Positions 7,961 to 49,439 of a stretch of 64,000 nucleotides of DNA are shown piece after piece. Position 1 is the first letter of the stretch; the number at the start of each line of letters is the position of its first letter. The position numbers and the translations under genes are program-made. The notes beneath the pieces are model-generated. The model was not told the DNA's origin. It did not search any database and saw nothing but the letters and a program-made list of their open reading frames with translations. Source of the DNA: Chrysomallon squamiferum (Eukaryota > Animalia > Mollusca); contig CM022670.1 of the NCBI GenBank assembly GCA_012295275.1, forward strand, positions 42,336,081-42,400,080. The letters are read 5' to 3'.

Positions 7961-8838
7961 GTAACATCCACACCGGACACATAAAGGTATACAACCCTGT
8001 CACCACAAAAAATAACTGAAAAATAACAAAGACAAGAATTTAAAAATATTTCATCTTTAATTATAATGCATTATTTTCTGATATATTTATTTATTTATTT
8101 ATTTTTGTTTGTTTCACAAATGCATTTTTTGTACAAAATGTGTAAACATAAAGTAGGCCATTTTGTTGCCAGCGACATATTGACCTATGGAAAGAAAAAA
8201 AAAATGATAATAAACAATATAATAAATAAATAATTAACAGACAAACTATTTTTGGACGTGATCTGTTGTTTTTTGCTTTTTCGTTTGTGAAAATTAACTG
8301 AAAGTAAGAAGGCTGACAGGACTTTTATGTTAACTAGAATAACCTAAAATAAGTGCCAGACCATTTATACAGCTCCTAAAAAAAACAACTTTATAAGTAT
8401 ATTAGTATCTGTTAAATACAGATTCGATCTTTACTTTAGAATTTAAGTCTATATATTAAACCTCTGATCCCAAGCTTACTCGATAAATGATCTGGGACGT
8501 ACATCACATAATCATCGAGTTGCTTAGTCTGCCAAAATGAAATATGAGCAGGCAGCAACACTGACCAGCATATTTTAGATATAACTAAATTTGATATTGA
8601 AAGATGAGTTACTAGTGTTTCAAAGTTCCCCATTATATAACATAACCATCCAAATCTACAGAATCCATTCGTAATTACACATGTATTAACTCTAAGGTGC
8701 TCTCCTGTGTTACGAAAATATCAAATTTATACAGATTGTGTTTCACCTTGTATAACATTTTCCTTAGTATTTATAACATGTCTCCATCACTATATCATTA
8801 CTATTACCACTAGCAATCTCATCAGGCTCACCTCCTGA

Positions 8839-9443
8839 CAGAGGCGTGTCTAGGGGAAATAGCGCCAATGGCAAGTACTGAAAGTGCACCTCTATCCAAA
8901 CATATGACACCAATATTTTTTTAAATTATTATTATTTATTAAAAAAAAGAAAAAAAAAAGACCCAGACTGTGGAACTGAAAGCGAATTGAAGAATTCATT
9001 TATGAGGTAAATGTGTGAAAAGTTGTATTCAAATATGTATTTAGGCTTTATATAAGACCGTTGTTCAAGTATATATATCTAAGACTGTATTATATATAGT
9101 CATAAATGTTTAGGTGAGGTAGAAACGCTCAAGAGAGCGTAAATTAAAATATAATCTACTTAAGCCAGAGGTATCCAAACTACAAAAATTTACACCCCAA
9201 TTTTTCTTTATAAGAACATTAAATTTCATTGATTACTATATATATTTTTTTCTTATTACTCTATTACTACAAGCACTATATTGTTACATAATAATTTACA
9301 CAAGTTCTTCAACAATCTGGCCACCCTAATCCTTCTCATACACATAAACAGAGATAATAACAGATCATATGTTTGAAGAATTGTTTTTTTTTCTGTTTTC
9401 CCCATGGCATCTGTCATACCTGTCATATCCTAGACACACCCTG
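8839..9443. mobile_element. hAT-family MITE with perfect 8-bp target-site duplication
   Basis: TIRs CAGAGGCGTGTCTAGG / CCTAGACACACCCTG; TSD CCTCCTGA at 8831-8838 and 9444-9451. A copy lacking most of its right end lies at ~13054-13498 in duplicate 2. Confidence 0.85.
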
Positions 9444-9789
9444 CCTCCTGAGCTATCCTGCTCCAATTCGAAGCCACTCCCGTCTCTAACAGAGCTTGTA
9501 CAAACTGCAGCCTGAAGTTACTGAATTCGACAAACAGTCTGTATGATAGTATAACTTTCCATTTGCATTTTTTGACATTTTAAGTAATAAAACTTTGAGA
9601 AATAATGAATTAGCATTTATCTAACATTTATTCGTATCAGGAGTTTAAAGAGCGGCGAATTTTCCATTGTTTGCCCTATTTGAATTAAATTTTAATATCG
9701 TATCTTGTAGTTGCATAAAATAATTTAGTTCGATATATCTCTCAAATATCAAACAAAAGTTTGAAATAAGAATTAGTCCGTGAGATAAC

Positions 9790-9932
9790 ATTTTTCTCTG
9801 TTATGACCCGGAAGAGTATGCATAGTTATTACCGTCACCTTCCTTTCTAACAAACTTATATTACAACGCGAAAAATTAAACAAAAGGAAAAAAAAGGAGA
9901 TGACTAACAACAAACACAACAAACAATATCTG
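9790..9932 (+). promoter_or_regulatory. Putative promoter and non-coding first exon of TIR gene copy 1 (paralogous site ~15065-15204)
   Basis: ETS-like CCGGAAG at ~9808; strong donor CTG|GTGAGT at 9932/9933; next good acceptor TTTCAG at 11424, just before the ATG. Confidence 0.5.
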
Positions 9933-10507
9933 GTGAGTTGTCGTTTCAATTGTAAATCGTTAAGTACACCGGGTAATGAACGTATTGAAATTTAGGTAAA
10001 AAATATTGTATCAATCAATTGTCACACTTATTCTTTACTTTAAAGTAGGTTATTACCTTGAAAATATACCTTTTAAAAAATGATTGCCGTTTGACTAAGC
10101 TAAGCTTATTCGGGACTTTAAATCTTATACAAGTTATAAATTACGAATTTCTCTTGTAGACAGCCAAATTTTATACAAATATTTTGAGTAGCAGGTACAT
10201 AATTGTGGGTACCAAAATGTGGGGTGTTTTCTGCAAATATGGCGGCCATAGTGATTGCTGTTGCTGTCGATGTCTGAAAAGTTCGATGTTTCCTTTATTT
10301 TGTTTGACTTAGAAATTATGAGGCAAAATAATTCCATAATGAGGTGTTGATTACAAAGACGGTTCTTAGCAAGTTAATCTTTTACGATTTTTTTTTTTTT
10401 AATTAATTCATTCATAAGGCAAATTAACGCAAATTAATTAACTGATAAAATATTAATAATGATAATAACAACAACAACAACAATAGTAATAACAATACCA
10501 ATAATAA

Positions 10508-10543
<36 letters not shown>

Positions 10544-11457
10544 TAAATGAATGTTAGCAAAATGATTGAACAAGTAAAGGCGTCTACAATTATAACCAGT
10601 CTTATAAAATGATTTTTGTTTTATTTTTATTTTATTTATTTATTTTTATTTTTTCTGGTTTGATTTCTATTCAGCTTTTGCTATTTACATAATTAAGGTG
10701 TAAGGTACATTTAAGCTAATTAATGCAACTAATTAATTCATTAAAATTTAGGTATGTTATCAACATGCTTAAAAATACTTAAAGCTTCTTTTTGATATAC
10801 AATACATGTATTGGTTTGAATCTATATAAGATATTCAGTATTTATGTAACCAAACTGAGGAAAGCAATCACAGCTTCTCCATAAATTCTGATGGAAAAAT
10901 ACGGGCAAATTGTATTTAGATAAAAATTCGTAATTTTTGTCATAACAACGCTACCAAAGATATCGTTTTAATCTACTTTATTTATTTATTTTTTATTTTT
11001 TTTGCTGTTTCTAATAATATATAATTTTATAGAAAAATGTTATTTTTGAAAATTTGTCACGTATCTCAAATTTAGATTAATTAATTACTTTATTTATAGA
11101 ACATAAATATTATCGTCAAGAAAGAATATAACATAAAAAATAAAAACACCAACGACAAAACGATAACTGATAATTCTAGTGATAGTTAATTATATCTAAA
11201 ATGAAAAAAAGAAAGAAGTAAGGCTGGGTCTGTATGCGTGGGTACTTTCACAATAACAGTAACACTGATCACTGAACTTGTTACTGTTGTTCTTCTTCCT
11301 ATTACTGTTTTTATTACTGTTATTGCTGTTGATGTTGTTATTGTTCTTCTTGTCATTATTATTTTTAGTGTTGTAATGATTACTTTTCTGCTTGTTATTG
11401 TTATTGTTGTTACTTTTATTTCAGAAAGATGACTGATGCTGTATAAATAAGTGTATA

Positions 11458-12304
11458 ATGGGTGTTATTTTTTCCTGGTTCGGACGACATTCAGAAGAAA
11501 GAGCAGATCCTGAAGGTTCCTCGGAAAAACATCTTTATAAAAACACTCGTGAATCTAGCGTTGATCGCGAGGATATTCCAGTAACACAACCGTCCCGCAA
11601 TCAAAGAATCAGCCATGAAGATGAAGATTCTGACGAGGGTGATACCTCTATGCCTAGTTATGACAGTCAAGGAGTACCAGCAGACGACACTGCAGAACCT
11701 GAGTATAGAATGTACAATCAACAAAATGATGAAGGTATAAACTGTTTTTTGAATGTCATGTATTTGTATGTGTGTAATGTGTATATTTGATGTATATATG
11801 TGTGTACGCGAGTACATCTGTCTGTGTGTATATTATTATTTATTTTTTCCAGGACAGTACCATGTAGCAATCGTTTGTCATGATCGTTATATGAAGCAGG
11901 CTGGTACACTCAAAGATCGACTTCAGACATTATTTCACGGTCAACGAAATCTCAGAATCGGTTTGTCCAGCGAGATAGGTAGCGCTGGAAAAACCGAAAT
12001 AGCCAATCTAGATACTTTGGTTCAAAATGTTCATTGCATACTCTTGTTGATCGAAGATGATTTTTTATCTGATCGTCAGTGCATGTTTGTATCCAATACA
12101 GCCATATTTTCCTCACAATTAAGCAGTTTAGTAGATAAATATGATTATGTTATACCTGTATTTACGAAAGAAAAATCCAAAATTGCTACAATGAAGCCGA
12201 CGATAAAAAGCATTCAGGGAATAAACTACTACAATGAAGTCTGGACAGACGATGTGAAGGAAGTATTTCGAAGAGAGATAGAGCGATGTGTTTACCGAGA
12301 CTGA
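11458..12304 (+). CDS. TIR-domain-only adaptor, TICAM2/TRAM-like, copy 1 (242 aa)
   Basis: Exons 11458-11734 and 11853-12304 (phase-1 GT-AG intron). MGVIFS N-terminus, acidic linker, then TIR pattern YHVAIVCH...AGKTEIANLDTLV...CILLLIEDDFLSDRQCMF...YVIPVF. Confidence 0.8.
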
Positions 12305-13583
12305 AGAAATATCTGAGGAAAAAACCCGTTCTCCATACACTGGAAAAAAAATTAAAATAATAATAATAATAAAAATCATTAAAAAATAAAAATAAAAAAA
12401 GAAATATGAAAGAGATCTTGTACTTTTATGAAATATATTATTAATTTTCTGTGTAATTTCTTTGCAATTAAGCATCGTTCATGTTGGTATTTTCTAGTAT
12501 GCTGTAATATGCATGCCATAAATGACAAATAAATATATATCTCTTGAAAGAAACGATTTCTGTTTCTCTTTGTTTCTTAGGTAAATACATTTGTATATAT
12601 TAATATTCGTCGGAAAAACAAAAACAAAATAATAATAATTAAAAATTGATCATCGTTAACTTTGTAAAAATAATATTTGTTGCTTTAAATAAATTGTTTT
12701 GGGACGTACAACACAATCATCGAGTATGCCAAAATGAAGTTAGGATGCTAATAAAATTACGAGCAGGCAGCAACACTGACCAGCATATTTTAGATATATC
12801 TAAATTTGATATTGAAAGATGAGTTACTAGTGGTTCAAAGTTCCCCATTATATAACATAACCATCCAAATCTACAGAATCCATTCGTAATTTCACATGTA
12901 TTAACTCTAAGGTGCTCTCCTGTGTTACGAAAATATCAAATTTATACAGATTGTGTTTCACCTTGTATAACATTTTCCTTAGTATTTATAACATGTCTCC
13001 ATCACTATATCATTACTATTACCACTAGCAATCTCATCAGGTTCACCTCCTGACAGAGGCGTGTCAAGGGGAAAGAGCGCCAATGGCAAGTAGTGAAAGT
13101 GCACCAATATTATTTTTAATTATTATTTATTTTATTCAAATACACCTAGAGAGTATTGTAGTAGGATATAGAACGAGTTATTAATATAAAAAAATAATAA
13201 TAATACAAAATAAAAACGAGAAGAATTCAAAAGACTTTGTGAAATATAAAGCGAATTGAAAAATTAATCAGTGAGGTAAATGTTTGAAAAGGATGAACTT
13301 ATTAAGAGAAATAACTAAATCCAACCACCCTTCATTAAATAAAAGTTGTATTCAAATATGTATTTAGGCTGTATATAAGACCGTTGTTCTAAGATTGCGT
13401 GTATTATATATAGTCATAAATATTTAGGTGAGGTAGAAACACTCCAGAGAACGTAAATTAAAGTATTAAGCCAGAGGTATCCAAACTACAAAAATTTGTC
13501 TCCTTAGCTATCCTTCTCCGATTCATAACCACCCCCATCCCTAACAGAGCTTGTACAAACTGCAGCCTGCTTCTATTTTTAGA

Positions 13584-14740
13584 GGTGTCGGCCCGGGCAG
13601 TCGACAAATCTCTTTTGTTTAGTACCGGGACGTAGAATAATAAAAGTCCCGGGACGTAGACATATCTAACTGCTTTTTAAGTTCTGCGCTGCAGTTACGA
13701 GACGCCTTTTTTGTTAACAACGAGATGAGAACCCTGAAGTAGAATATTATGTGATTACTGTCCTGGGTAGAATTTGTAATTAGGCTTCCATTAACTGAGT
13801 AGGTACCTAAGTGTTTTTGTTTATTATTTATTTGTTCTTATTATGCTCAAAAATGTACCTGTTTCTTTCTCTTATACTGAGCAGGCGCTCATACATTGGT
13901 TCTTTTCCCGGTTTAATCTATATAAAGTTCTATATCAAAATGGAAAACTATTTCACGTTTAACATTATGGCAGCTGCACAAGTTAGAGTGACTTTTATCG
14001 ACACATTAATAGGCGGACGACATTTGTGTTACAATCAGCACAAATTTCGCATAAACAGAAAGTGTGGAGAGAAAATGTGGGTTTTTTTTTATGTTTGTGT
14101 GTGTGTGTGGGTGGGTGGTATGGGTGTGTGTATGTGGGTGTGTGTATGTGTGTGTGAGAGACAATGGAGGCATTCAAGATGAATTCCATTTTGCATCAAA
14201 ATGTTTATTTTATAATGATATCATATTTAAAGAAATATTTGTATACAAGACCATCTACTTTTAACATAATCAATCTTTTGTCTTCAAAAAATAAAAAATA
14301 AAACCTTTAAGGAATCTTGATAAATATGTAATTTAATTTGTAACTACATATATAAAACAACTATATGTTAATATTTTTATTATCTTAATTCTTACGTTTA
14401 ATTTTTTTTATTCCTGTGTTTGTATACAGTAACCTATTACACAACTGTTTCTGTTTTATAACTGTATTCTTGTCTGTCTTGTGTTTATAGTCATGTTGAC
14501 TTTGGCAAATAAATAAACTGAACAGAAACTGAACAGAAATAGTAGAAATAGTAGCAATAGCTGCGGTACAGTATCATCTCGTTCTTACTTTTTCACTGCG
14601 CAAACCGTCAACCAGGTAAAATGGCAATTAAAATTCCAGGGACATCGACAGATCCTCACTGGTACATTTCAGCTTGTCCCGATAAGTAGACACAATTTTA
14701 AGATCATCTACAGAAGTTGTCGACTTCGCGGGCCATAACC
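13584..14740 (+). mobile_element. Mutator-like (MULE) remnant with FLYWCH-like 5' fragment
   Basis: Imperfect TIRs GGTGTCGGCCCGGGCAGTCGACAA / TTGTCGACTTCGCGGGCCATAACC; TSD TTTTTAGA (13576-13583, 14741-14748); peptide from ATG 13967 TFIDTLIGGRHLCYNQHKFRINRKCGEKMW resembles the start of a FLYWCH zinc finger. Confidence 0.72.
14160..14540 (+). mobile_element. 3' fragment of a non-LTR retrotransposon nested in the MULE remnant
   Basis: Peptide IQDEFHFASKCLFYNDI resembles the C-terminal EDEFHF..C..Y motif of invertebrate LINE ORF2; ends in AATAAA plus a short repeated tail (AAACTGAACAG x2). Confidence 0.5.
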
Positions 14741-15732
14741 TTTTTAGATGGCACGATAAGCAGCTCCGCCCATAAACCTGAAGTTACAGAATTCGGATAA
14801 ACACAGCCTGTGTGTCGTAGTATAAGACGCCATTTGTAGCTTTTAGACATTTTAAGTAATAAAACTTTGAGATATAATGAATTAGCATTTATCTAACATT
14901 TATTCGTATCAGGAGTTTAAAGAGCGGCGAATTTTCCATTGTTTGCCCTATTTGAATTAAATTTTAATATCGTATCTTGTAGTTGCATAAAATAATTTAG
15001 TTCGATATATCTCTCAAATATCAAACAAAAGTTTGAAATAAGAATTAGTCCGTGAGATAACCTTTTTCTCTGTTATGACCCGGAAGAGTATGCATAGTTA
15101 TTACCGTCACCTTCCTTTCTAACAAACTTATATTACAACGCGAAAAATTAAACAAAAGGAAAAAAAAGGAGATGACTAACAACAAACACAACAAACAATA
15201 TCTGGTGAGTTGTCGTTTCAATTGTAAATCGTTAAGTACACCGGGTAATGAACGTATTGAAATTTAGGTAAAAAATATTGTATCATTCAATTGTCACACT
15301 TATTCTTTACTTTAAAGTAGGTTATTACCTTGAAAATATACCTTTTAAAAAATGATTGCCGTTTGACTAAGCTAAGCTTATTCGGGACTTTAAATCATAT
15401 ACAAGTTATAAATTACAAATTTCTCTTCTAGTCAGCCAAATTTTATACAAATATTTTGAGTAGCAGGTACATAATTGTGGGTACCAAAACGTGGGGTGTT
15501 TTCCGCCAATATGGCGGCCTTAGTGATTGCTGTTGCTGTCGATGTCTGAAAAGTTCGATGTTTCCTTTATTTTGTTTGACTTAGAAATTATGAGGCAAAA
15601 CAATTCCATCATGAGGTGTTGATTACAAAGACGGTTCTTAGCAAGTTAATCTTTTACGATTTTTTTTGTTCTAATTAATTCATTCATAAGAATTAACGCA
15701 AATTAATTAACTGATAAAATAATAATAATGAT

Positions 15733-15765
<33 letters not shown>

Positions 15766-15788
15766 AGTAATAACAATACCAATAATAA

Positions 15789-15824
<36 letters not shown>

Positions 15825-16740
15825 TAAAAATGAATATTAGCAAAATGATTGAACAAGTAAAGGCGTCTACAATTATAACCAGTCTTATAAAATGATTTTT
15901 GTTTTATTTTTATTTTATTTATTTATTTTTATTTTTTCTGGTTTGATTTCAATTCAGCTTTTGCTATTTACATAATTAAGGTGTAAGGTACATTTAAGCT
16001 AATTAATGCAACTAATTAATTCATTAAAATTTAGGTATGTTATCAACATGCTTAAAAATACTTAAAGCTTCTTTTTGATATATAATACATGTATTGGTTT
16101 GAATCTATAAAAGATATTCAGTATTTATGTAACCAAACTGAGGAAAGCAATCACAGCTTCTCCATAAATTCTGATGGAAAAATACGGGCAAATTGTATTT
16201 AGATAAAAATTCGTAATTTTTTTCATAACAACGCTACCAAAGATATCGTTTTAATCTACTTTATTTATTTATTTATTTATTTTTTTGCTGTTTCTAATAA
16301 TATATAATTTTATAGAAAAATGTTATTTTTGAAAATTTGTCACGTATCTCAAATTTAGATTAATTAATTACTTTATTTATAGAACATAAATGTTATCGTC
16401 AAGAAAGAATATAACATAAAAAAAAAAAACACCAACGACAAAACGATAACTGATAATTCTAGTGATAGTTAATTATATCTAAAATGAAAAAAAGAAAGAA
16501 GTAAGGCTGGGTCTGTATGCGTGGGTACTTTCACAATAACAGTAACACTGATCACTGAACTTGTTACTGTTGTTCTTCTTCCTATTACTGTTTTTATTAC
16601 TGTTATTGCTGTTGATGTTGTTATTGTTCTTCTTGTCATTATTATTTTTAGTGTTGTAATGATTACTTTTCTGCTTGTTATTGTTGTTGTTGTTACTTTT
16701 ATTTCAGAAAGATGACTGATGCTGTATAAATAAGTGTAAA

Positions 16741-17670
16741 ATGGGTGTTATTTTTTCCTGGTTCGGACAACATTCAGAAGAAAGAGCAGATCCTGACGGT
16801 TCCTCGGAAAAACATCTTTATAAAAACACTCGTGAATCTAGCGTTGATCGCGAGGATATTCCAGTAACACAACCGTCCCGCAATCAAAGAATCAGCCATG
16901 AAGATGAAGATTCTGACGAGGGTGATACCTCTATGCCTAGTTATGACAGTCAAGGAGTACCAGCAGACGACACTGCAGAACCTGAGTATAGAATGTACAA
17001 TCAACAAAATGATGAAGGTATAAACTGTTTTTTGAATGTCATTTATTTGTATGTGTGTGTCTGTGTGTGTGTTGTATGTATGCATGTATGTATCTATGTT
17101 TTATATGTTTTATATATATATGTATGTGTGTGTGTATGTATGTATGTATGTAATGTATGTACGACTGTACATCTGTCTGCGTGTGTATTATTAATTAATT
17201 ATGTTATTGTTTTTTTTAAATTGTTTTCAGGACGGTACGATGTTGCAATTGTTTGTCATTATGATTATGAGGAGAAGGCTCGTGAATTCAAAGGTCGACT
17301 TCAAACATTATTTCAGGGAAATCTCAGAATCGGGTTGTTCAGCGAGATAGCCATCGCTGGAAAAACCGAAATAGCCAATCTAGATGTATTGGTTAGTAAT
17401 GTTCCTTGCATACTTTTAATGATCGAAGATAAATTTGTTTCTGATCCTCAATCGATGTTTTCATCCGATACAGCCATATCTGCCTCAGCATTCTTGGATT
17501 TAATACCGAGGAAAGATTATGTTATACCTGTATTTACGAAAGAAAAATCAAAGATTGCTGGAATTACGCCAGCGATAGCCAACTTGAAGGGAATCAACTA
17601 CTACGATGAAGACTGGAGTGAAGTGGTGAAGAATACATTTCAAAGAGAGATAAACCGGTGTGTTAACTAA
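16741..17670 (+). CDS. TIR-domain-only adaptor, TICAM2/TRAM-like, copy 2 (238 aa spliced)
   Basis: Exons 16741-17017 and 17231-17670; same intron position as copy 1. TIR pattern YDVAIVCH...AGKTEIANLDVLV...CILLMIEDKFVSDPQSMF...YVIPVF. Confidence 0.8.
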   Translation: MGVIFSWFGQHSEERADPDGSSEKHLYKNTRESSVDREDIPVTQPSRNQRISHEDEDSDEGDTSMPSYDSQGVPADDTAEPEYRMYNQQNDEGINCFLNVIYLYVCVCVCVVCMHVCIYVLYVLYIYVCVCVCMYVCNVCTTVHLSACVLLINYVIVFFKLFSGRYDVAIVCHYDYEEKAREFKGRLQTLFQGNLRIGLFSEIAIAGKTEIANLDVLVSNVPCILLMIEDKFVSDPQSMFSSDTAISASAFLDLIPRKDYVIPVFTKEKSKIAGITPAIANLKGINYYDEDWSEVVKNTFQREINRCVN

Positions 17671-20169
17671 ACTTAAAAAATTATCGCAGGAATTATGCGA
17701 TGAAAAACTCCATACAGAGGGGAAAATGGGGAAAAAAGAGAAAAGAATAAATAAATAAAAAAGTTAAAAGAAAGAAAAAGAGATTTAATAAATAAAAAAT
17801 AGATCTTTTTATGGAATATATTATTAATTATCTGTATAATTTCTTTGTAATTAAGCATCGTTCATGTTGATATTTTCTAGTATGCTGTAATATGCATGTC
17901 ATAAATAACAAATAAATATATATCTCTTGAAAGAAATGATTTCTGTTTCTCTTTGTTTCTTCGTTCAGAGAGTGAAGTTACAACTTTAAGCCTTAATCAA
18001 TAAATTATTGAAGATTTGTTTAAACTTTAATAAATATCATTTAAGTTTAATCCATTTATCTGCAATTATTGGGAGAGTATACGAAAAAAAGTTGCCGAGC
18101 ATTGGTAAATACATTTGTATATATTAATATTCGTCTGAAGAATAAACGAAATAATAATAATAAAAAAAATAATTATCGTTAACTAATAATAGTTGTTACT
18201 TTAAGTACACATGTTTTTCCTTTTCTTATTGAAAATATTACCGGCTGCCTCACTTATCTGCAGCTCAAGGGCCTATGGAATTTTATTCCGTTTACATTTT
18301 TGTTTTGTTTCTGTTTTGTCAAGCAAACGAACGAACGAACGAACGAACAAATAAACAAACAAAATAATAATTGAAAAATTGTAATCCTGACACTGGTTAA
18401 TGAAAAAATATATATATGTTTTCTGATACTTACTTTTTTTATACAGTTTTCTTTCATCAGGTGTTTAAAAATTTATAATTCTGTACAAAAAGAAAAAAAG
18501 AAGGAAAAATGAACAAAATTAGCAGAGCAACAGCTAAAAAAAAACCAAAAAAAAAAAAAAACAAGCAAGAAACAAAAAATGCAAGCATGTATATAACACT
18601 ACATAATTATGTGCGGGTGTGCGTGCGTGCGCATGAGAAAAACGTTTAATATAAATTTTGAATTTCAGGCAAATCCAGTCAGTCGTTATGAAGAAAACAA
18701 ACTGTTACATAGAGAAAGGTTTGTTTAAAGAGACAGATAAAATAGTTATATCGCAGCTGTGTTGTATCAACTTTACGCAGCGCAGTATTGTAACATGGTT
18801 TTAGCTGTATTGCTGCAGCCATAGAAAATAAATAAATATGTAAGGATAGTTACAGAATATCAGATTTGAAGATGAAGGTGAGAATATCAAGCCAACTAAT
18901 GTGTCTTTCTTTACACGAGTCTAATAAATTATAGAAAGCCCCAACCTATACTGTTTATTTTAGATCAACGTGTCTTTAGGAAATGTAGCAAGATATATGG
19001 TATTGAGCATGCTCGCACCTCCATCTCATTAACTCGAGTTATTATTACCGTTGTTGTTGATGCTGGTCTCTTCGTTCGTTTTTTGTAGCGCTGCAGCTTT
19101 GTGAGGCTAGTTATAATAACGTTAATGGTTTATAAATTTCTATAATGTGGGAAACAATATTTGTTAAATAAAGTGCTTGCGACATTTATGTCTTAGAAAC
19201 GTAATTATTTTTGGAAAATATAAAATAAAGTTGTATTTGGTTTCTTATGTTTCGGACGCTACTATTTGAAAACTTTGAAAGTTTGCGCCTCATATTCGAA
19301 GCTTCACTCCATTACAGTGGCCTGTTTAAAAACAACGTCAGACATCCTTACAGTCATTATATTGTAACATTTTATAAATTTTTGTCACACGTGATTAACT
19401 AGAAAACCATTTGGAATTATATTTCCATCCTGAGTTGTCTGTATAACATCAATAGTTCTGGATATTTCTACATTTTTGCTATATATTTAATGGGATTATC
19501 TCCCTTACAAAATCTTTACGAACGGAGTAAGGAAAAAATAACTTTTATTATTATTATTTTTTCAATTTAATGGCGAATTTGGTTGGGGTTTGCTTAGTGA
19601 TCTTGAATACTCCATGACTTTTTGAATGGCTAAGTAGATTTATTCTGGTGTATATCTGATTATGTTGTCTTATTGATATCTGATATCGACCTGATGCAAT
19701 GTCACGATGCTGAAAATACCACAGAGGACTGTTTAGAGTTGACGTCACGTGTAATTACTTCTCTAATTTGACAAAACTGAAAAATTAGAACTAAGTTTTT
19801 GCCACTTTTCATTGAAGTAATTAATAAACATCAGTCCGCTAAGAGAAAGTATTTTATTAATGCTATTATAATTTAATTTCACAACTGTAAATAAAATATA
19901 ATAGTAGTTAAAGCAGTTTGAATAAATACTAATCGACTTGGATTTTATTTTGATTGTAACGTAAGTAAATTACTAAATAAGATTATAAAATTATTTTATT
20001 TTTGTTTGCATCATTAACATGATTACGTTTCATCACGTAACTTTGTAACCAAAGCCAAAATAGAATTTGTTATAACATTTATAGAATTTGTTCTCAAAAG
20101 GTTCTTGTAGTACATTAATAAATTGCAGCTATTGATAATTCAGTAAAAGTCTTGCTTTTTTCAGATACC

Positions 20170-23100
20170 ATGGCAACAGGAGCTTTGTGTTCAGTGGTAG
20201 ATCAAGGTGTGCATGAGACAATTCTTAGCAGCAAAGAAAATGTAATTTCATGTGAGCAAGCTGAATCAACTGCAGATGATCCTGTCATTGACATTGTCAT
20301 TAATAATGTCGTCTCTACATTTAGTACTCGCTGTCACCTGAACTTGAAACAGATTGCCATGACTGGTGCCCATGTTGAATATCGGAGAGAACAGGGTGTA
20401 AGTATGATGTACATGTTGTATATCAAAGAGAATAAGGTGTAAGTATGATGCACATGTTGAATATCAGAGAACAGGTTGTAAGTATGATGTACATGTTGAA
20501 TGTCAGCGAGAATAGGGTGTAAGTATGATGTACATGTTGAATATCAGAGAGAATAGGGTGTAAGTATGATGTACATGTTGAATATCAGAGAAAAGGGTGT
20601 AAGTATGATGTACATGTTGAATGTTGGAGAGAACAGGGTGTAAGTATGATGTACATGTTGAATATCAGAGAATAGGGTGTAAGTATGATGTACATGTTGA
20701 ATGTTGGAGAGAACAGGGTGTAAATATGATGTACATGTTGAATATCAGAGAACAGGGTGTAAGTATGATGTACATGTTGAATATCAGAGAACAGGTTGTA
20801 AGTATGATGTACATGTTGAATGTCAGCGAGAATAGGGTGTAAGTATGATGTACATGTTGAATATCAGAGAGAATAGGGTGTAAGTATGATGTACATGTTG
20901 AATATCAGAGAGAATAGGGTGTAAGTATGATGTACATGTTGAATGTTGGAGAGAACAGGTTGTAAGTATGATGTACATGTTGAATATCAGAGAACAGGGT
21001 GTAAGTATGATATACATGTTGAATATCAGAGAGAACATGTATCATGTACATTTTAAATGTAGGAGAGAACAGGTGTAAGTATGATGCACATGTTGAATAT
21101 CAGAGAGAACAGGGTGTAAGTATGATGTACATGTTGAATGTTGGAGAGAACAGGGTGTAAGTATGATGTACCTGTTGAATATCAGGGGAAGAGTGTGTAA
21201 GTATATAGTTATCACATGACACTGGAAAGATAACTTTTCATACTACAGTAGAATTGTAGAGAAAAGTTTAAATGTGAATTATTTTACATGTTCTAATTAA
21301 ATAACAAAGTGCAAGTGAAATTGTTACAATACATTATAAAATACATTAACAGTGAAATGTCTGTTTTGAGTAAATGTTGAATTGTTTTAATTTCAGAAGT
21401 AGTAGTAGTTTATGGTATGTATTTTGATGTGTAAAACCTATTGTTAATCTTTGTCAGATGGTCAACATGAAACTTCGTCGACCTCAAGCAACTGCCAGTA
21501 TTTGGTCATCAGGCAAAATCACTTGTACAGGTTCGACCAGGTAATAAAATCTACAGTTTCATGTTCAACCATATCCTATGTATGCAAAGTAGACTGGACT
21601 AAAACATACATACAATGTTCAGTCTTGTAATAAAAATGTACATGCTCTGCAGAAATATGTATTAAAAAGATACAAATAGTATTCAACAGTCTAATGGAAA
21701 TGTACTATTCAACCATGTAATAAAAATACTCTTACAATATTCAACCATCTAATAACATTGTCTGTTTTATAAAAACATTCAGATTTGTCCCTGAAAAAGA
21801 AAGATTTTAAGTTTTTATGTAGTGAGTTTTTGTTTTCATTCACACAGTTGTTGATGTTTGTGTTGCAGTGAGGATGATGCTCATCGTGCAGCGCGGCGGT
21901 TTGCACGTCGGCTACAGAGAATGGGCTACAACGTGAGGTTCAGTAACTTCCGAGTTGTCAACGTTCTTGGTACATGCTCCATGCCATTTGGAATCAAAAT
22001 CACTCTCTTCTCCAGAGAACATAGACAGAATGCTAGGTATCAGCTTTCACACTTGTTTCAGACTTGCTTTATTATGTGAGATGTTCCATTTTGTATATTG
22101 CTTTTTTATTGTTTATTTACTGTTGTGCTGGATGTTTCAGTTATGAGCCTGAATTACATCCTGGTGTTACCTACAAAATAAAAGATCCAAAAGCAACACT
22201 GAAGATCTTTTCTACAGGAAGTATTACTGTTACAGGTGGGTAAATTTTATTTACTGATGTGCACAACCAATTTAACTTACTTACACTAATGTATAACTAG
22301 TTTATTTTTACTTACTTACACTGATATAACTTGTTTACTTTAACTTACACTGATATATAACTAATTTACTTTAACTTACTTACACTAAAGGAATAACTAG
22401 TTTATTTTTACTTACACTAAAGGAATAACTAGTTTATTTTTACTTACACTGATATATGACTAGTTTGCTTTTACTTATTTACATGGATATATGACTAATA
22501 TACTTTTACTTACTGACACTTGTATAGAAGTAGTTTACTTTTCTTAATTACATTGATATATAATCCCTTTACTTTAACTACTGACCCTGATATATAACTA
22601 GTTTTAATTACTGTCACTGTAACATAACTAGTTTTGCTTTCTGTCATTGATACATAACTAGATTTACTTTCTGTTACTAATACGTAACTAATTTTGCTTT
22701 CTGTCACTATACTGTAACTAGTTTTACTTCCTGTCACTATATTGTAACTAGTTTTACTTTCTGTTAACTAATATATAATTAGTTTTGTTTTCTGTCACTA
22801 ATACATAACTAGTTTTGTTTTCTATCATTGATACATAACTAGTTTTACTTTCTATCATTGATAGATAACTAGTTTTGCTTTCTATCATTGATACATAACT
22901 AGTTTTGCTTTCTATCATTGATACATAACTAGTTTTACTTTGTCACTGTAACATAACTAGTTTTACTTTCTATCATTGATACATAACTAATTTTACTTTG
23001 TCACTGTAACATAACTAGTTTTGCTTTCTATCATTGATACATAACTAATTTTACTTTGTCACTGTAACATAACTAGTTTTACTTTCTATCATTGATACAT

Positions 23101-24803
23101 AACTAATTTTACTTTGTCACTGTAACATAACTAGTTTTGCTTTCTATCATTGATACATAACTAGTTTTACTTTCTATCATTGATACATAACTAATTTTAC
23201 TTTGTCACTGTAACATAACTAGTTTTGTTTTCTATCATTGATACATAACTAGTTTTGTTTTCTATCATTGATACATAACTAGTTTTGTTTTCTATCATTG
23301 ATACATAACTAGATTTACTTTCTGTTACTAATACATAACTAATTTTACTTCCTTTCATTGATACATAACTAGTTTTAATTTCTGTCACTAATATGTTACT
23401 AGTTTGCTTTCTATCATTGATACATAACTAGTTTTACTTTGTATCATTGATACATAACTAGTTTTGCTTTCTGTCATTGATTCATAACTAGTTTTAATTT
23501 CTATCATTGATTCATAACTAGTTTTAATTTCTGTCACTGTAACATAACTAGTTTTACTTTCTATCATTGATACATAACTAGTTTTACTTTCTGTCATTAA
23601 TACGTAACTAGTTTTGCTTTATGTCACTAAAACAAAACTAGTTTTGCTTACTGATGTTTAACTAGGTTGTTTCTGCTTATTTACATATAATATATAACAA
23701 CTTTCCACACAAGTTTACATTCATTGGTCAAATGGTTGCAGAATACAGGTCATCAAAGAATCCCTGCATATAGAATTTTTCTGAGGTAGAACACTGTAAA
23801 TACCACAGTGAATCTCCTGAGTATAACCGAGGTAGATCTCTTAAAAACTGATGGATCCTAAGACATTTTTGTTTTTAGGAACAAGTTATTCAAACAGAGG
23901 TGCTCTGATTAACAAATTACGTCACTGTGATGTCATGTCTCTTGCAAAGTCTTTACCAGTAATTACACTTATTAGGCTAAAAGCTTGTTTGTGTTTTTTT
24001 AATTTTAATCACTAATTAACATCATCTTTATTGAGCACATGCACAAAAAAAATGTGTCTTAACACTCGTAATGCTGTCACTGTATTACAAAGTTTTACAT
24101 GCTATTCTGAATGTTGAATTGTTTTGTTGACGATAGCTATTGTAAAAATGTTAATGCATTCTGCTGGTTAATGCTAAGCAAATATGCCAGATTGTAGGAA
24201 GAATAAATATTTTCAAAATGTATAAGAATAATAAATATATAGTAATAATTAGACGTAATTGTTTATAATCTGATTTTAGTATATCAAGAATATTATGACT
24301 TGAAAACAAGATAAAAACTTACATTATATGATCAAAAGGTTATGTGCATTGTTTTTCAGCAAGTAAACACATCAGGAATATTTTTATTTACTGGACAGAT
24401 CAGACTTCTTTTTCATACCATCAAGAGTAATTTAATTTTTTATGTGAGAGCAGATAATGTTGGTCTATAAATATTATTTTATAATTCTAGAACATTAATC
24501 TCTTTTACTTATAAATATTTTTATTGTACTGTAATCATTAATTTTTATTTTAAGTTTCTTTGTTTTTGTTTTCTCACTCAAGCACCATCTGTAATGAATG
24601 TGCAGTCAGCCATTGAACACATTTATCCTTTAGTGTCACAATTCAAAGCAGAAAGCACTGTAGTTGCTGCCAGCACGTTGCTGACAGAGAAGAAGTATCT
24701 TCACAAAGACCTGTCACAGCCTGTCCACTTTGAGTCAGATGATGAAGAGTTTGGAACGGACTGTAGTGACGAAAGTTTCGACAGCGAGGAAAGTCATGAT
24801 TGA
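20170..24803 (+). CDS. TBPL1: TATA-box-binding protein-like 1 (TLF/TRF2)
   Basis: In-frame exons 20170-20397, 21458-21540, 21869-22036, 22141-22235, 24583-24803. Motifs IVINNVVSTFSTRCHLNLKQIA, ATASIWSSGKITCTG, FRVVNVLGTCSMPF, SYEPELHPGVTYKIKDPKATLKIFSTGSITVT; acidic C-terminal tail. Confidence 0.96.
20371..21205 (+). repeat. Minisatellite, 39-41-bp unit that contains the TBPL1 exon end and splice donor
   Basis: Unit CATGTTGAATATCAGAGAGAACAGGGT|GTAAGTATGATGTA, about 20 copies; the first copy overlaps coding sequence HVEYRREQG. Confidence 0.95.
22250..23660. repeat. Intronic minisatellite, ~28-30-bp unit (TATCATTGATACATAACTAGTTTTACTTTC)
   Basis: Over 40 copies starting just after the TBPL1 donor at 22236; degenerate edges and homogeneous core. 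Confidence 0.95.
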
Positions 24804-26257: not shown

Positions 26258-26515
26258 TTAATCTTCAGGCCGTTTGGGTGGAGGGCCACATGGCTGCAAC
26301 ATGCGTTCCATTATATTGAATTTCACTCTTGCTCTTGCCTCATTTTCTGCTAGAGCAAAATAATTGAGTGTATCAAAATGTCCAAGGTATGAGGCATAAC
26401 TGTCTCGGTGTTGGTTTGTCAGCCACTCCCACTTATTGGTGTCTGCATGACCAGTTCCTATGTACTTTGACTGAAGATGTTCTAACTGACTATGAATATT
26501 GTACCTGTCACCCAT
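26258..26515 (-). CDS. SF3B5: Splicing factor 3B subunit 5 (SF3b10), 85 aa
   Basis: MGDRYNIHSQLEHLQSKYIGTGHADT...QHRDSYASY...MLQPCGPPP is the hallmark sequence. True ATG at 26515; 5'UTR intron ~26532-26948. Confidence 0.98.
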   Translation of the reverse strand: MGDRYNIHSQLEHLQSKYIGTGHADTNKWEWLTNQHRDSYASYLGHFDTLNYFALAENEARARVKFNIMERMLQPCGPPPKRPED

Positions 26516-26948
26516 CACGAAGTGTATTCACCTGTAAATACAAAGTTAGTAACCTGTAGTGTACAATTATATATGTCACACATTAGTAAACTGTAATATA
26601 CAAATATACGTTACCTTTGAGAACTGGAATACACAAATACATATGTCACACACCTGAAAACTGAACTACACAAATATACGTCACATTTGTGAACTGGAAT
26701 ACACAAATATACATGCCACAATTTAGTAAACTAATACATAACTTTTTCTAATTTCTGTATTCTAAATGTGTATTTTATGAGATTACCACCAGCAAGTATA
26801 TAAGTGGAATTCAATTAAATAAACGTTTTTCTTTCAAATCTTTACATTAATGTCTATAAGATTACGTGATCACATTACCAAAATTTTCAAAAATACTTAT
26901 TTGACTTTACTAACCACGTCTTGAAGATTACTGTAAAAATACAATTAC

Positions 26949-29998: not shown

Positions 29999-32900
29999 AT
30001 GCCTAATCGAGGGAAAAAACGGAACAGTAACATTAGAGATAACATTTTAAACAAGACAAGTCCAAGCAAAAAACCAAAACTAGAAGGTTTGTTTATAATT
30101 GTTGCCTATTCTTAAAATTTCAATTAATCAATTAACAGCTGTTAATGAACATAGGTGATTTTTTTTCTTCTGTTTTTCATAGGTCAGTTTTTCATTGTTA
30201 TAGCAGAGGCTACACTTTTTCTCTCTCAGTTACCTTGTGTTTAAAAACTAAATATCTGAGTGAGTGTTACAGAGAGGTTGCAGGTATCTTTGTTGCAGTG
30301 TTGAAAATGTCTGTCACATAAACAATAAACATTCTCTCCTGTAATCCTTTCCTCATCACTTTGTAACATTAAGATATCACCAACCTGAAAAATGTAATTG
30401 TAGCATGTGTCATGGTGACTAGTCTGACTGGTATTAATACCTTAAAGTTGGCTCAACCCATAAAGGGGTAGCAGATTATAATAGCATCACACGACCAGGT
30501 GTTAATGCCTGAGACCAAATTACCAAATGATTATTCTGTATCCACTAGAGAATAATAACCCAAACGAAAATTGAATATGGGTTATTGTTTTATGTATCAC
30601 ATAAAGTAACCATCAGTGGTAACAAATATAATTTAATTGCAAGATTCTCATGGTATTATTCAAATGCAAATGACATTGCTATATACTGTTCTGATTAAGC
30701 CTAGTTGGTTACATTAACTTTCTAACTTAGCATTTAGTTATTAAAGTAAGTTATCTTAGTTTATTACTTAGTTTTCAAGCTTAAGTAAGTACCATAGAAT
30801 AACACTAAAAAATATTCAACAGAAATATACTTGCCTGTCTTCTGTCAGTCAACATGTCTGTTACATAAAAACATTTTTAAACCAAAATTACCCTTTAATG
30901 AGTGATCCTTTGTTCTGAGTACATCTGAATCCCTCGGAAAATGTGACACAAGACTTCGCACTGATCAAAAGATCCTCATTAAAATGCTCCCGAAATATAA
31001 AAGGCTCGCACATTTAGCCTTTTAGAATTTTCTTAGCAATTTAAATAGCTTATTCTGAATTAGATAATCCGAGTATTTCTTTGTTTATAATACAGCTTCT
31101 AAAGCTGTATCCTAACTGGATGCGATATATGCAAGCAACACAACATTTCTTATCTCCTATCATTTTTGAAACTTTGATCCACCCTGAAGACAAGTTAAAC
31201 CTATTAGGGTATTTATTACAATGTTATATCATATTAAAGCAAAGCTACCTTCCCCCCACCCCAGGTAGGACTGGACCTTCCAAGAAGCTTATACAAGCAT
31301 GTTATTAATAAAACACACACATTACTTACTAGGTAAACCTAAAGGTTTTCCAGTATTCTTACAGTCATTTTGTTTTCTGTTGTTCTTTGTACGTTGACAA
31401 AGAACAATCATAAAGTACTGGTAACTTCTGAACAAGATGGATATTATTCATCTTTCATTTTTATATACTCTTGTTTGTGATGGGTTAATATATTTCAGAC
31501 GCTCGTGTAGTGTGACAAAAAATAGAAACAGTTCCTATTGGTATTGTGTTGCGTGCTCGACTAACTCAAACTTTTGCATCATATGTGTGTAGTCGGGATG
31601 CTGCAACTGACATCAGTGGTGTCTAAAAAAAAAATCACTTGCGTCATATGCCCAGTTATGACACACCTTAAACAGCCCATGTATATCTGCATACTTTCTG
31701 TTATTTAGTTATTATGTAGTTATCCTAATGTGTAGTTACATTAATTAGCTAAACATTGAAGAACCGTAAACATATGAATTTATAAACAAGATTATACACT
31801 ATAGCTTAACAAATACTACTGTAATATAATAATATTCTTAATATAAAATGTAGCAATCGTTCTGCTTTAAATGGGCATATAAAAATAAATGTTTTACAAA
31901 TTATGTAACTGACTAGCAAGAGTACAAAATTATGATTAAAAACAAGTCTGGCCAACTCTTGTACTAATGAGGTTCCATCACAGTGAGCATAAATTTTCGG
32001 TTGGAATAAACTTTCTTTTTTGATTAGTAATTCATCCATTGAAGGTATCTGTTTTATTCTGATATGCATCATATCACAACTATATGTTTTGGTATGCTGT
32101 GTTTAGTTAATGACAGTGTACAAATATGATACAATTTGTATTAATCAGAATGTGATACTGCATACTTGATAATTGTTTTTAGATTTTCTGTTTTGAAAAT
32201 AACTTTAAGAAATGTAGATTGTTGGACTTGCTTCCTGTTTCAAGATGACTGAAGTATATAACTATTATAATCCTAATAAATGTTCCATTTTTGAAACTGC
32301 ATATTTTCTGATATTTGTTTTTATCTTTAATTTTGTTTAAACCAGTACATCATCACTCTCATGGCAAGAAAGCTGGGGTTGTGCTCACCGTGGGGCAGGG
32401 TGAGATGGGTCAGCTGGGACTGGGTGAAGATATCATGGAGAGAGGTCGACCTGCCTTTGTGAAGATTCCAGAGCCTGTGATCCAGGTGTGTGCTGGAGGA
32501 ATGCACACTGTTGCTGTTACCACTGGTGGTCACGTACGTCTACTTATTTACAACTGTTTTAACTACTTCAGCCAATTATCACATTTATAGCATAGTACTA
32601 CCAAAATTTTCAGAAGTAAGTTACATATTAAAAGGAATAGGTGAAAGTATCTTGTATATGTGATTTTATTTTCCTTGGCTTTATAGAAAACCAAGAAAAA
32701 TACTATTGTATACCCCTTAAATCTGGAAAAGTCCATTCGTATGAGTCGCCATAACAGTGTTAATTGTGTTTAATTGTTTCTACAGTATGACTGTATATAT
32801 GAATGAGTGTGTTTGTCATTTTCTTTATATTCTACAAATAAAGGTTGTTTTACTGTGAGCTAACAGTACTGTTTATGGATATTTGCAAAGCTTGTGTTTT

Positions 32901-35900
32901 GGGGATTAGCTTTGCATTCACAACAAGACAGTAATTCCTTATTTTAGCTCCTTGGCAAGTCTACAGCTATTATTTAGATCAAAGCAGAACTGCCACTGGC
33001 AGGGGGGTTGAAATAAGTGAAACAAGAAATAGCTATACATGTATCAGTGTATCAGTGAAAAATGTTAACATCAAGAATTGGATTTTCTTAAAGAAACATG
33101 TTATCATTGGAAAGGGAAGTTACCATAATTAAATGAATTAAATATTGAGTAACTTGAGTCAGAAATGAATTTGGTCCAAAAATTCCATAGGCATAAAGAA
33201 ATGAGTTAATTTAAAAAAAAAAATATATATATAAAATATATATATATATAAAATACAAAAGTCTTTTTTTTTTAATTAAGTTTTTGATTGCAGTGTGGTA
33301 TCAGATTTTAGAATTTTTTTTTTTTTAGGTTGATATAGGTTTTCCATATTTTATAGGTTTATACATTTGGCTGTAATGATGAAGGTGCACTGGGACGTGA
33401 TACAAGTGAAGAAGGTTCAGAAACACTTCCAGGCAGAGTCGACTTGCCAGTGAAAATAATCCAAGTGAGTGCAGGGGACAGCCACACTGCAGCCTTGACA
33501 GACGATGGAAAAGTCTACGCCTGGGGTACTTTTAGGGTTAGTAAATTGTTTTAGTTACAAATTAACAGAATAACTATCATTTTTAACAAACAGTATATAT
33601 GTGTGTTAATGAATACATTTTAATTGCAGGATGCCAGTGGATCTATGGGATTAAATAAAAATGGAATAAAGAAGTTGCCAGTTTTGTTGCTCTCTGATGT
33701 GATTGTTGTTAAGATTATGTCTGGCAGTGATCACATGTTATGTCTGACGAACACTGGTGAACTCTACAGTCTTGGTTTGTATTCACTTGAATTACAAAAT
33801 TCATAATCAATAAACTATGAGCAGAAAAACAACATCAGTGTCCAGTTCTTTATAATGAATGAACACCAACCACTAATATTTTGTATTACAATATTTACTT
33901 TGGGATTACAAAGCTGCAGTGAACCTTTGAATAGTTAGGCTCTGACTGAAAAAAAGTGGCTGCAGTACTAATTCCTGAGATCTGCAAATTTTACTATGAT
34001 TCAAATACACAATGAATACAAGTTGATCAAAATGTAGTAAAGTCCACACTGTCAGTCAGAATTTCTCACAGTTTATTGAACTTTTAAAATAAATTCAAAA
34101 TCCAATTTGATATTCTGTTAATATATTTATTTGAAATAATTTTAATTACAGATTAGAAATATTTTGATCAACTGTAGACCAACTCATTTGTATGATTGTA
34201 AACTTTGTAACTATTATCAACTTAACAGATGAATACAGATGTAAATGTATTCAGCATTAATAAAGTAGCCACAGTGATGGTTGTAACTTTCTTTTGTGAT
34301 CCGTAATCAAGACATATTTGATGTTTTCAGCAATTTGACTGCATCACATATAGCTAACTGTTAGTTTGACTGTTTTTACTTGCAGGCTGTGCTGAACAGG
34401 GTCAGTTAGGAAGAATAGCAAAGTGTTTCTCAACCAGAGGAGGTAGAAAGGGACTTGGTGAGTATCTCACGTCAGTCTTGATATATGTATCTCATATCTA
34501 CATCAGTGTTAACACATTTATCTCACATCTACATCAGCATTGACACCTTTATCTCACATCTACATCAGCATTGACACCTTTAGCTCACATCTACTTCAGC
34601 ATTGACACATTTATCTCACATCTACATCAGTGTTAACACATTTATCTTACATCTGCATCAGCATTGACACATTTGTCTCACATCTACATCAGTGTTAACA
34701 CATTTATCTCACATCTACATCAGTGTTAAAGCATTTATCTCACATCTACATCAGTATTAACGCATTTATCTCACATCTACATCAGTGTTAACACATTTAT
34801 CTCGCATCTACATCAGCAGTGACACATTTTTCTCTCAGGCAGACACACACACACACCAACAAAAATTAAGAAAAGACATTCTTTTGATACGAAATTCTTA
34901 TGGTATTACATCTATATTTAAAGAATTTTAATTAAATTGTTGTCATATTGCATGCAGTAAAAAGAAATAATGAAGAACCCTAACAGTATATTTTACAAGT
35001 ACAAATGTGAAGTTGAAAGATGCAGTATTGAGAAGTGAGATGCTTGTATTTCCTGGTTTTTCTTTTTCGCAAATATTAATCAGTCTAAGTTGGCTATCAG
35101 CAATGTTAGCTGTATTTGTAAAAAAATTACATTAGCATTTAAAATCATTTCAGATTTTATTCTCAGTCCGGGTCTGGTCAGATGTAGAAAACATAAGTCA
35201 AGGAAGATGGTTTGTTTTTCTGATGTCTGGACAGGACAGTATGCTTCATTTGCTCAGGAAAAAGAAACTGGAGAAATCTATGCATGGGGACTAAATAACT
35301 ATTTCCAGTTAGGTGAGTACCTCACTTGATTATTATCAGTTAGGTGAGTAATTCATTTGATTATTATTAGTTACATGAGGATCTCAATTGATTATTATAA
35401 GTTATATGAGTACCTTGTTTGATTATATCAGTTATGTGAATGCTTTGCTTGATATTTCCAGCTAGGTGAGTACCTCAGTTGATTATTAGCATTTAGCAGT
35501 GTACTTTGTTACCAGCCAGGTAAGAACTTGGTTGACTATTGCCAGCTAGAAGAGTACATCAGCTGAATGTTATCAGTTAGATGAGTACATCAATTGAATA
35601 TTACCAGTTAGATGAGTACACCATCTGAATGTGACCAGTTAGATGAGTACTTCAGCTGAATATTACCAGTTAGATGAGTACATCAGCTGAATATTGCCTG
35701 CTAGAAGAGTAATCAGCTGAATATTACCAGCTAGATGAGTACTTCAGCTGAATATTACCAGCTAGATGAGTACATTAGTTGATGATTAATGTTGCAGGAC
35801 TTGCTTAAATAATTAATTTCTAATGATTAAAAACAATCAGTATTTTCAAAATGTTCGTTTGGCAGGTTTTGGTGACATAGAAAACCGATTTCACCCAGAG

Positions 35901-45488: not shown

Positions 45489-45663
45489 TTTATTTATAAT
45501 TGTTTTATTATTATTATTATGTTGTTGTTGTTTATCACAGATTTAGGTAAACGCCTGCCAAGCTTATACATTATTTTCTTTGCTACAATAAACTCTCGCC
45601 CTAAGTTTTAATAATGATATTTGTTTTATAATAAGTGTCACAATTTTCTCTTTCAGAGTGAAA

Positions 45664-49262: not shown

Positions 49263-49439
49263 CAGCAGTTTGTTTCTGTTGTATGACTTACACAAAAGTA
49301 CTATTTAGAAAAAAACAGATATTTTAGACAGAAATGTACACAACGTTTATTTCGTGAAGTGCTGTAAATATACGTAATTTGTGTTCTGTGTTAACCTAAC
49401 ACAACTGTACTCTGAAACTGAAAACACTGTATTGTCAAT

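Follow-up and report, generated by a model that had tools for sequence, protein, structure and literature searches.

Two tandem genes in a 64,000-nucleotide stretch of Chrysomallon squamiferum DNA (GenBank assembly GCA_012295275.1, contig CM022670.1, positions 42,336,081 to 42,400,080 of the forward strand; the whole stretch is termed the window, and all coordinates refer to it) encode spliced, TIR-only paralogs whose TIR domains, among solved structures, are closest in sequence to those of the adaptors TRAM (TICAM2) and TRIF (TICAM1). The pair is real and expressed and is the clearest TICAM-like protostome candidate found in this analysis. Both proteins belong to a gastropod family, and our preferred reading, which we give about an even chance, is that they are nonenzymatic bridging adaptors tethered to a membrane by a predicted myristoylation. 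As the sequence-only reading of this DNA had proposed, both genes encode proteins of ~240 residues that share an MGVIFS start: gene 1 encodes 242 amino acids (ATG at 11458; coding exons 11458-11734 and 11853-12304) and gene 2 encodes 238 (ATG at 16741; coding exons 16741-17017 and 17231-17670), and both begin with MGVIFSWFG. The parts of the locus are as follows.

8483..18217, plus strand: head-to-tail tandem duplication, from blastn self-matches (units ~8483-12700 and ~12689-18217)
9822..9932, plus strand: noncoding 5' exon of gene 1 (RNA joint 9931/11424, GT..AG, in 2/3 RNA runs; donor CTG/GTGAGT)
11425..11734, plus strand: gene 1 leader (33 nt) and N-terminal exon, codons 1-93 (anchor and acidic linker)
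11458..11484, plus strand: gene 1 start MGVIFSWFG, with a Gly2/Ser6 myristoylation consensus and a hydrophobic I-F-x-W-F stretch, by sequence
11735..11852, plus strand: gene 1 phase-1 intron, 118 nt, GT..AG, removed in 3/3 RNA runs
11853..12304, plus strand: gene 1 TIR exon, a TICAM-like TIR by sequence and fold searches (P0001, residues 94-242)
15094..15204, plus strand: noncoding 5' exon of gene 2, by homology (111/111 nt the same as the gene 1 exon, same donor)
16708..17017, plus strand: gene 2 leader and N-terminal exon with the MGVIFS anchor and acidic linker (307/310 nt the same as gene 1)
17018..17230, plus strand: gene 2 phase-1 intron, 213 nt, GT..AG (gene-2-type junction in 3/3 RNA runs)
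17231..17670, plus strand: gene 2 TIR exon (P0002; 63% amino acid identity to the gene 1 TIR exon)

Six public runs contain the stretch, four of them recorded as RNA. Our transcript evidence comes from contigs of three RNA runs from a single study and of one run of unrecorded kind, placed on positions 8000-12340, and these contigs reveal neither strand nor expression level. The gene 1 intron was skipped in all three RNA runs and not in the run of unrecorded kind. Two of the three RNA runs joined the noncoding exon at ~9822-9932, whose 5' end is only the point where the RNA contig starts, to position 11425. After splicing, the leader has an in-frame stop (TGA, 11434-11436) ahead of the gene 1 ATG, so that the MGVIFS methionine is the first usable start of the long frame; positions -3 and +4 relative to this ATG are A and G. 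To the extent that RNA contigs can tell, the start that places glycine at position 2 is the one used. Read from the same contigs placed on the gene 1 stretch, a second junction form (86 letters between; C, C, and T at 11979, 11980, and 11982) occurred in all three RNA runs. This form carries gene 2 bases and fits the spliced gene 2 junction, indicating that both copies appear as spliced RNA, and gene 2 variants of the N-terminal exon were present in an RNA contig of run X1.

The gene 1 leader (9822-9932 plus 11425-11457) also contains three upstream ATGs with short open reading frames (ORFs), one in the exon at 9822-9932 and two in the 33-nt leader of the exon at 11425..11734, with all frames closed before the main ATG; these upstream ORFs might damp translation. 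In gene 2, the intron at 17018-17230 is in frame and free of stops, and the raw ORF runs through it. Its retention would lengthen the protein by a hydrophobic insert rich in Cys, Val, and Tyr; the RNA contigs contain the spliced form only.

The layout of both proteins agreed with what had been read from the sequence, an acidic linker between a myristoylation motif and a single C-terminal TIR domain, with no transmembrane (TM), LRR, or death domain. Residues 2-7 (G-V-I-F-S-W) satisfy the N-myristoylation consensus as quoted in PMC9440496 and also given in PMC5492501, a short motif that makes the modification a predicted one. The linker (residues 13-93) contains 28% D/E and 10% ILVFWM. The highest 19-residue hydropathy values of the two proteins (1.25 and 1.64) fall inside the TIR domain, indicating no clear TM helix. 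Pfam detected no TIR, LRR, or death domain in the two TIR exons or the gene 1 N-terminal exon, and no TIR or TIR_2 model matched P0001 or P0002 at E<=1. Among 10 N termini compared, the pair did not stand out by helical hydrophobic moment (0.35 over residues 2-12), and we make no claim of an Arf-like amphipathic helix there. Both proteins lacked TRAF6, pLxIS, and RHIM motifs (with neither PxExx[DWEFY] nor PxExxP present), a TRIF N-terminal domain (NTD) by Pfam, and the death domain and RDVLPG Box 2 that mark MyD88.

An AlphaFold model built from a 13-row alignment contained a confident alpha/beta domain (predicted local distance difference test score [pLDDT], 81), and all listed top Foldseek and VIA matches of this model were TIR proteins, the best VIA match being a TRIF filament (Z 15.1; root mean square deviation, 2.8 over 137 residues). 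As modeled, the domain is a TIR fold of the flavodoxin-like five-strand, five-helix type, despite the Pfam miss. The slot that holds the catalytic Glu of NAD+-cleaving TIR domains, which we take to be marked by C-x-x-E spacing, contains Val in gene 1 and Ser in gene 2, and the BB-loop apex is AG rather than PG, both as previously described. These residues support the earlier suggestion of a scaffold rather than an enzyme, and the pair is predicted to be enzymatically inactive.

The TICAM-type resemblance that had been noted by eye was recovered in searches of PDB sequences, where TRAM followed by TRIF topped every informative search. A family profile ranked TRAM first (39 bits; E 4.7e-9), followed by TRIF (28 bits; 1.1e-5), MAL (19.5 bits; 5e-3), TLR5 (16.7 bits), and MyD88 (13.6 bits; E 0.3). 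The top 6 of its 24 rows were TICAM proteins, an earlier family search gave the same order, and SARM1, oyster TIR-STING, and Hydra TRR-2 were not among the 24 rows at E<=10. Four nonoverlapping queries likewise placed TICAM proteins first: P0001 alone (top 3 of 16 rows TRAM, E 0.002; MAL next at 0.75), the relative P0010 alone (top 6 of 8 rows, E 0.005), six other relatives (4/4 rows, E 7e-5), and four more relatives, three of them from Haliotis (6/6 rows, best E 0.03). In the ESM Atlas, TICAM2 was the first named cluster for P0010 (0.94; 207/256 features), with TIRAP next at 0.92.

Residue patterns agree with these searches in part. The BB loop of TRIF is EDFxxPG, and that of TLRs, IL-1R, MAL, and MyD88 is RDxxPG (PMC7075850). 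Across 15 family rows, Arg occupied the first motif position in none and an acidic residue in 11, the second position was acidic in all 15, and Gly was present in 12, a mixed pattern in which the family BB loop may be nearer the TRIF type than Box 2 but lacks the Pro. TRAM residues R119, L122, L125, F151, and L157 are needed for signaling or filaments (PMC11745336), and in an alignment of P0001 with TRAM anchored on C117 they correspond to K, I, L, F, and I of gene 1. The αB/αC pattern NLD..V and FL.D..C.F is common to TRAM and the pair, and the acidic AA-loop patch of TRAM is partly kept in the pair and better kept in the relatives on the Haliotis side.

Each of the bridging or effector adaptors shares some features with the pair. 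TRAM, the best PDB sequence match, has the same overall design (~235-240 amino acids, N-terminal myristoylation consensus, linker, single C-terminal TIR, and no catalytic Glu), and both TRAM and TRIF lack this Glu (PMC11745336). The pair differs from TRAM in not keeping W148, in lacking a PxExxP TRAF6 site, in its gene neighbors, and in an MG start that is not family-wide; where TRAM has Pro116-Cys117-Gly118, gene 1 has Ser-Ala-Gly and gene 2 has Ile-Ala at the P116-C117 position. TRIF was the second-best sequence match and gave the best structural Z, with MAL within 1 of it. The family resembles TRIF in the RHIM-like or TRAF-type motifs of some relatives and perhaps in its BB loop, which is partly of the EDFxxPG type, whereas the pair has no NTD, RHIM, pLxIS, TRAF6 motif, or BB-loop Pro. 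MAL (TIRAP) was the first Foldseek match and is likewise a short bridging adaptor with an N-terminal membrane anchor, and the C-H ending of strand βA in the pair resembles the TIRAP Box 1 YDVCVCH (PMC7075850). However, MAL scored ~20 bits under TRAM in the family profile, its anchor is a phosphatidylinositol bisphosphate (PIP2)-binding motif and not myristate (PMC11745336), and the pair lacks an RDxxPG Box 2.

Searching 1.84 billion representative proteins with phmmer returned 12 matches, 11 of which are true relatives; the other, P0014, an 852-residue repeat protein matched over residues 24-84 only, was dropped as spurious. The named relatives, all annotated as uncharacterized, are four Gigantopelta aegis loci (LOC121382052, LOC121378462, LOC121378480, and LOC121380707), two Haliotis asinina proteins, and one from H. 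rubra (Haliotis accessions XP_067667172, XP_067664919, and XP_046580198), and four relatives are unnamed. Identity between the pair and the named relatives was 26-48%. Word-based protein searches, all weak negatives, added no further members: 0/13 candidates for P0001 held up, the family alignment found 0/7992 among proteins of 659-2000 amino acids, and a TIR-focused alignment found only three already known members among 5827. Among metagenome contigs, 0/145 pattern matches were confirmed. In a tree of 15 family rows with no outgroup, the pair formed a clade (98/99) within a Gigantopelta group (100/99), and the Haliotis proteins fell outside this group. Pfam TIR_2 reached its cutoff in 1 of 14 relatives scanned and was subthreshold in 3 more. 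NCBIfam/PADLOC matches were scattered (RmrT in 3/15 rows; best E 5e-5) with no support from the fold or from most members, and they gave no lead toward a bacterial origin.

The relatives differ from the pair in that none has an MG start, one has a CARD, and two have the catalytic Glu. The N-terminal motif scan covered 10 relatives from 8 genes, left out P0005, P0007, P0009, P0017, and P0020 (unnamed single-exon ENA proteins) and P0018 (a TIR-less isoform) for want of a usable N terminus or of the TIR, and found LOC121378480 to share an N-terminal I-F-x-W-L/F stretch with the pair. G. aegis LOC121382052 (P0004/P0016) encodes a CARD-linker-TIR protein that contains PIQET and has Glu at the catalytic position, which makes it, by sequence, a candidate effector adaptor or active TIR enzyme. 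PIQET or PIQES, presumably a TRAF2/3-type site, occurs in two relatives' genes. Two Haliotis proteins (P0013 and P0015) have N-terminal RHIM-like stretches, IAIGQANKV and VAIGQANNV. In P0015, what seems to be part of an additional TIR start lies ahead of the complete domain, perhaps because the gene model fuses tandem copies. The linker word SSVD is common to the pair (at 11554-11565 in gene 1) and three named relatives. The linkers of P0004, P0006, P0008, P0010, and P0011 reuse the short words SSVD, [DNE]-L-E-x-D-[AP], which we take to resemble a caspase site, and YxGSxNxA; the pair lacks the last two.

A number of observations weigh against a TICAM affiliation or a TRAM-like function for the pair. 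"Closest" applies among solved structures, and as the PDB has few invertebrate TIR domains, TRAM may not be the closest overall; identity to TRAM is ~21%. The fold picks no subfamily, with VIA Z scores of 15.1 for TRIF, 14.3 for MAL, 14.1 for Hydra TRR-2, 14.0 for MyD88, and 13.8 for TRAM, and a Foldseek order of MAL, TRAM, and MyD88. Queries with P0002 alone and P0011 alone each returned 0/2 TIR rows from the PDB, and the top two ESM Atlas clusters for P0001 were unnamed and without recorded taxa, followed by a TIR cluster. The BB-loop apex Pro is absent from all 15 family rows, and the pair has Ser instead of an acidic residue at the first motif position. TRAM P116, C117, and W148 align to S, A, and Q in gene 1, and an Ala at the BB-loop apex is likewise found in TLR3, the recruiter of TRIF. 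In TRAM, P116A and C117H abolish filaments (PMC11745336). The Haliotis RHIM-like stretches miss the strict RHIM pattern of PMC9440496. The MG start occurs in 0/10 relatives scanned, all automated gene models, and the named relatives come from Gigantopelta and Haliotis only. The vertebrate TICAM2 neighbors FEM1C and CDO1 (PMC9440496) were not among the labeled ORFs in the window, where an ankyrin-repeat ORF was not compared with FEM1; synteny is often lost over such evolutionary distance. Finally, studies on Aplysia, Saccostrea, and Mytilus report no clear TRIF or TRAM ortholog (PMC9334734, PMC4892480, PMC3308963).

The two genes appear to have diverged unevenly after duplication. Identity between the copies is 100% in the leader exon, 98.5% in intron 1, and 99% in the N-terminal exon, the last with two amino acid changes and zero silent changes over 92 codons. 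Identity falls off inside intron 2, and the TIR exons share 80.5% DNA and 63% protein identity. Over 145 codons of the TIR exon, the pairwise nonsynonymous (dN) and synonymous (dS) rates were 0.26 and 0.25, and the resulting dN/dS of ~1.05 is compatible with positive selection and relaxation alike. The changes fall on helices αA (9/17) and αC (12/25), with strands βA and βD spared. On the simplest reading of these alignments, the duplication is an older one in which conversion or unequal crossing-over may recently have homogenized the 5' half, the TIR meanwhile diverging.

With regard to ancestry, the earlier suggestion of a deep TICAM relative or a convergent form stood in part: the TICAM-type sequence was upheld, and a deep TRAM-like architecture was not. 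TRAM orthology is unlikely because TRAM is described as having arisen within chordates by duplication from TRIF (PMC7075850, PMC9440496), the neighbors differ, and the MG start is confined to the pair. The MG start in 0/10 relatives further suggests that the likeness to TRAM in layout probably arose by convergence inside a family related to TICAM. Descent from TICAM itself is, on the sequence evidence, likely but finely poised. A competing account of ancestry, to which we assign slightly less than an even chance, is that these proteins form a gastropod orphan TIR family not descended from TICAM, with the likeness reflecting a shared divergent TIR_2-type state or long-branch similarity. The narrow range of the family, the fold searches that tie TICAM with MAL and MyD88, the surveys lacking TRIF/TRAM orthologs, and the absence of shared synteny fit this account. 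Against it, four disjoint queries were TICAM-first, the full profile separated TRAM from TRIF by 11 bits and from MAL by 20 bits, the language-model match to TICAM2 is independent, and the search from a single sequence lacked the power to find even TICAMs themselves, which makes the family's narrow range a lower bound. This account concerns ancestry and overlaps the functional readings: such a family could possibly be the catalogued ecTIR-DC or another orphan group and could still act as an adaptor. The ecTIR-DC and orphan TIR-only proteins are cytosolic TIR proteins proposed as adaptors or regulators (PMC6836662; PMC6321704, citing Gerdol et al. 2017). Their catalogues would rest largely on recognized TIR domains, whereas Pfam misses the pair.

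Two other functions were weighed against bridging. In the main rival, which we regard as rather unlikely, each protein is a membrane-tethered decoy or brake whose TIR enters the assemblies of receptors or adaptors, or engages microbial TIR effectors, and caps them to damp signaling. The missing BB-loop Pro, the lack of an effector motif in the pair, the diverged TIR exon beside a 98-100% identical 5' half, and the clustering of changes on αA and αC are compatible with a decoy, and inhibitory TIR proteins are known in amphioxus (bbtTIRA/TIRC; PMC6043800). However, the Pro is missing family-wide, the CARD-bearing member included, so that its loss does not mark out a defective copy; the apex residue of TRAM itself is Cys (PMC11745336); and several TRAM interface hydrophobics are retained. 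In the other, a membrane-anchored NAD+-cleaving enzyme, the pair would resemble the many animal TIR-only proteins, molluscan ones included, that make cyclic ADP-ribose (bioRxiv 10.64898/2026.04.20.719644), and two close Gigantopelta relatives, P0004 and P0006, have Glu in the slot (2/15 rows). This function is very improbable for the pair, which has Val and Ser in a slot for which the family as a whole shows no fixed residue (V, S, E, Y, K, H, A, and R), as the same preprint describes many active animal TIRs that all need this Glu; its main text has no mention of TRAM, TRIF, or TICAM.

If the preferred reading of membrane-tethered bridging adaptors holds, loss of Met1 would expose Gly2 for myristoylation, the I-F-x-W-F residues would touch the membrane at a second point, and the ~80-residue acidic linker would give the TIR enough reach to meet that of an activated receptor, a TLR being the most plausible. 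The TIR might then coassemble head to tail and, without an effector motif of its own, recruit an effector-bearing partner, much as TRAM acts for TRIF; family members that have a CARD, a PxQxT TRAF site, or a RHIM-like motif are plausible partners, and the output would be MyD88-independent. The copies share an anchor and leader and would present different TIR surfaces, and may thereby serve different partners. In a broader reading, which we hold tentatively and at somewhat under an even chance, the TICAM lineage predates chordates and survives in protostomes, and a family that expanded from it in vetigastropod and neomphaline snails independently rebuilt a TRAM/TRIF-like division of labor. In this pre-chordate reading, the pair would be the myristoylated bridges and the members with a CARD, TRAF site, or RHIM-like motif the effectors, in a family invisible to Pfam.

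TICAM/TRIF has been placed in chordates (PMC6043800, PMC9440496, PMC11788365, PMC7075850), and the origin of TICAM, hence of MyD88-independent TLR signaling, in amphioxus (PMC6043800, PMC9440496, PMC11788365). A 2022 TICAM survey filtered at 30% identity and E 1e-10 and by a Pfam TIR_2 match in the NR database of 2019 (PMC9440496); because the gastropod family is Pfam-invisible, surveys with such filters probably missed it. Molluscan studies report TBK1, TRAF, IRF, and RIP1 with the adaptor missing and suggest an unknown one (PMC4892480, PMC9334734). The family is a concrete candidate for this adaptor, and if the pre-chordate reading is true, it would fill the vacant adaptor level in a MyD88-independent TLR pathway of molluscs. 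Should the family group with TICAMs, it would date to the bilaterian ancestor; if not, it would represent a convergent TRAM-like design. Either way, a shared anchor with diverging TIR surfaces offers a compact system for testing the evolution of partner specificity in TIR domains.

Our literature search, which did not extend to most subscription papers (among them Gerdol et al. 2017, on the ecTIR-DC families), found no published description of the gastropod family. Scattered molluscan entries that bear the TRAM name may be loose earlier sightings of the gastropod family: one weak TRAM match in Mytilus edulis (HE609076; PMC3308963), TRAM/TICAM2 in a scallop pathway figure (PMC12521104), and a quantitative PCR target in abalone named "tram", for which the main text of PMC8465606 gives no accession. 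Cnidarian "TRAM" matches tabulated at E 1e-58 to 5e-72 (PMC1896004) exceed what a shared TIR domain could give; the unrelated translocon protein that is also abbreviated TRAM probably accounts for them.

The duplication lies in AT-rich DNA between a lysophospholipase-like gene and a TBP-family gene by Pfam, and no third copy was found within the 64-kb window. A scan of 12 neighboring ORF pieces, 4 of which received no label, gave the following Pfam assignments.

1280-1606, 20122-24800, 26261-26527, 32312-37490, and 49422-50819: housekeeping-type neighbors (phospholipase/carboxylesterase, TBP family, SF3b10, RCC1-like, and ankyrin-repeat)
40967-41974, minus strand, and 45592-46692, plus strand: two divergent single-exon HlyIII/PAQR-family genes

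Farther along the window, dispersed repeat copies at 30410-31982 and 52217-54167 share 71-74% identity and are probably transposon remnants; an ORF within the second (53253-53690) had no Pfam match. Beyond these, 35 copies of TTAGGG (56075-56285) are followed by a 374-bp satellite (56321-64000; 20.6 copies to the window end, 98% matches, GC ~46%), a region in which neither Rfam nor tRNA matches were found. By sequence, this arrangement may represent a junction of telomere-like or subtelomeric type, or else a telomere array in an interstitial position.

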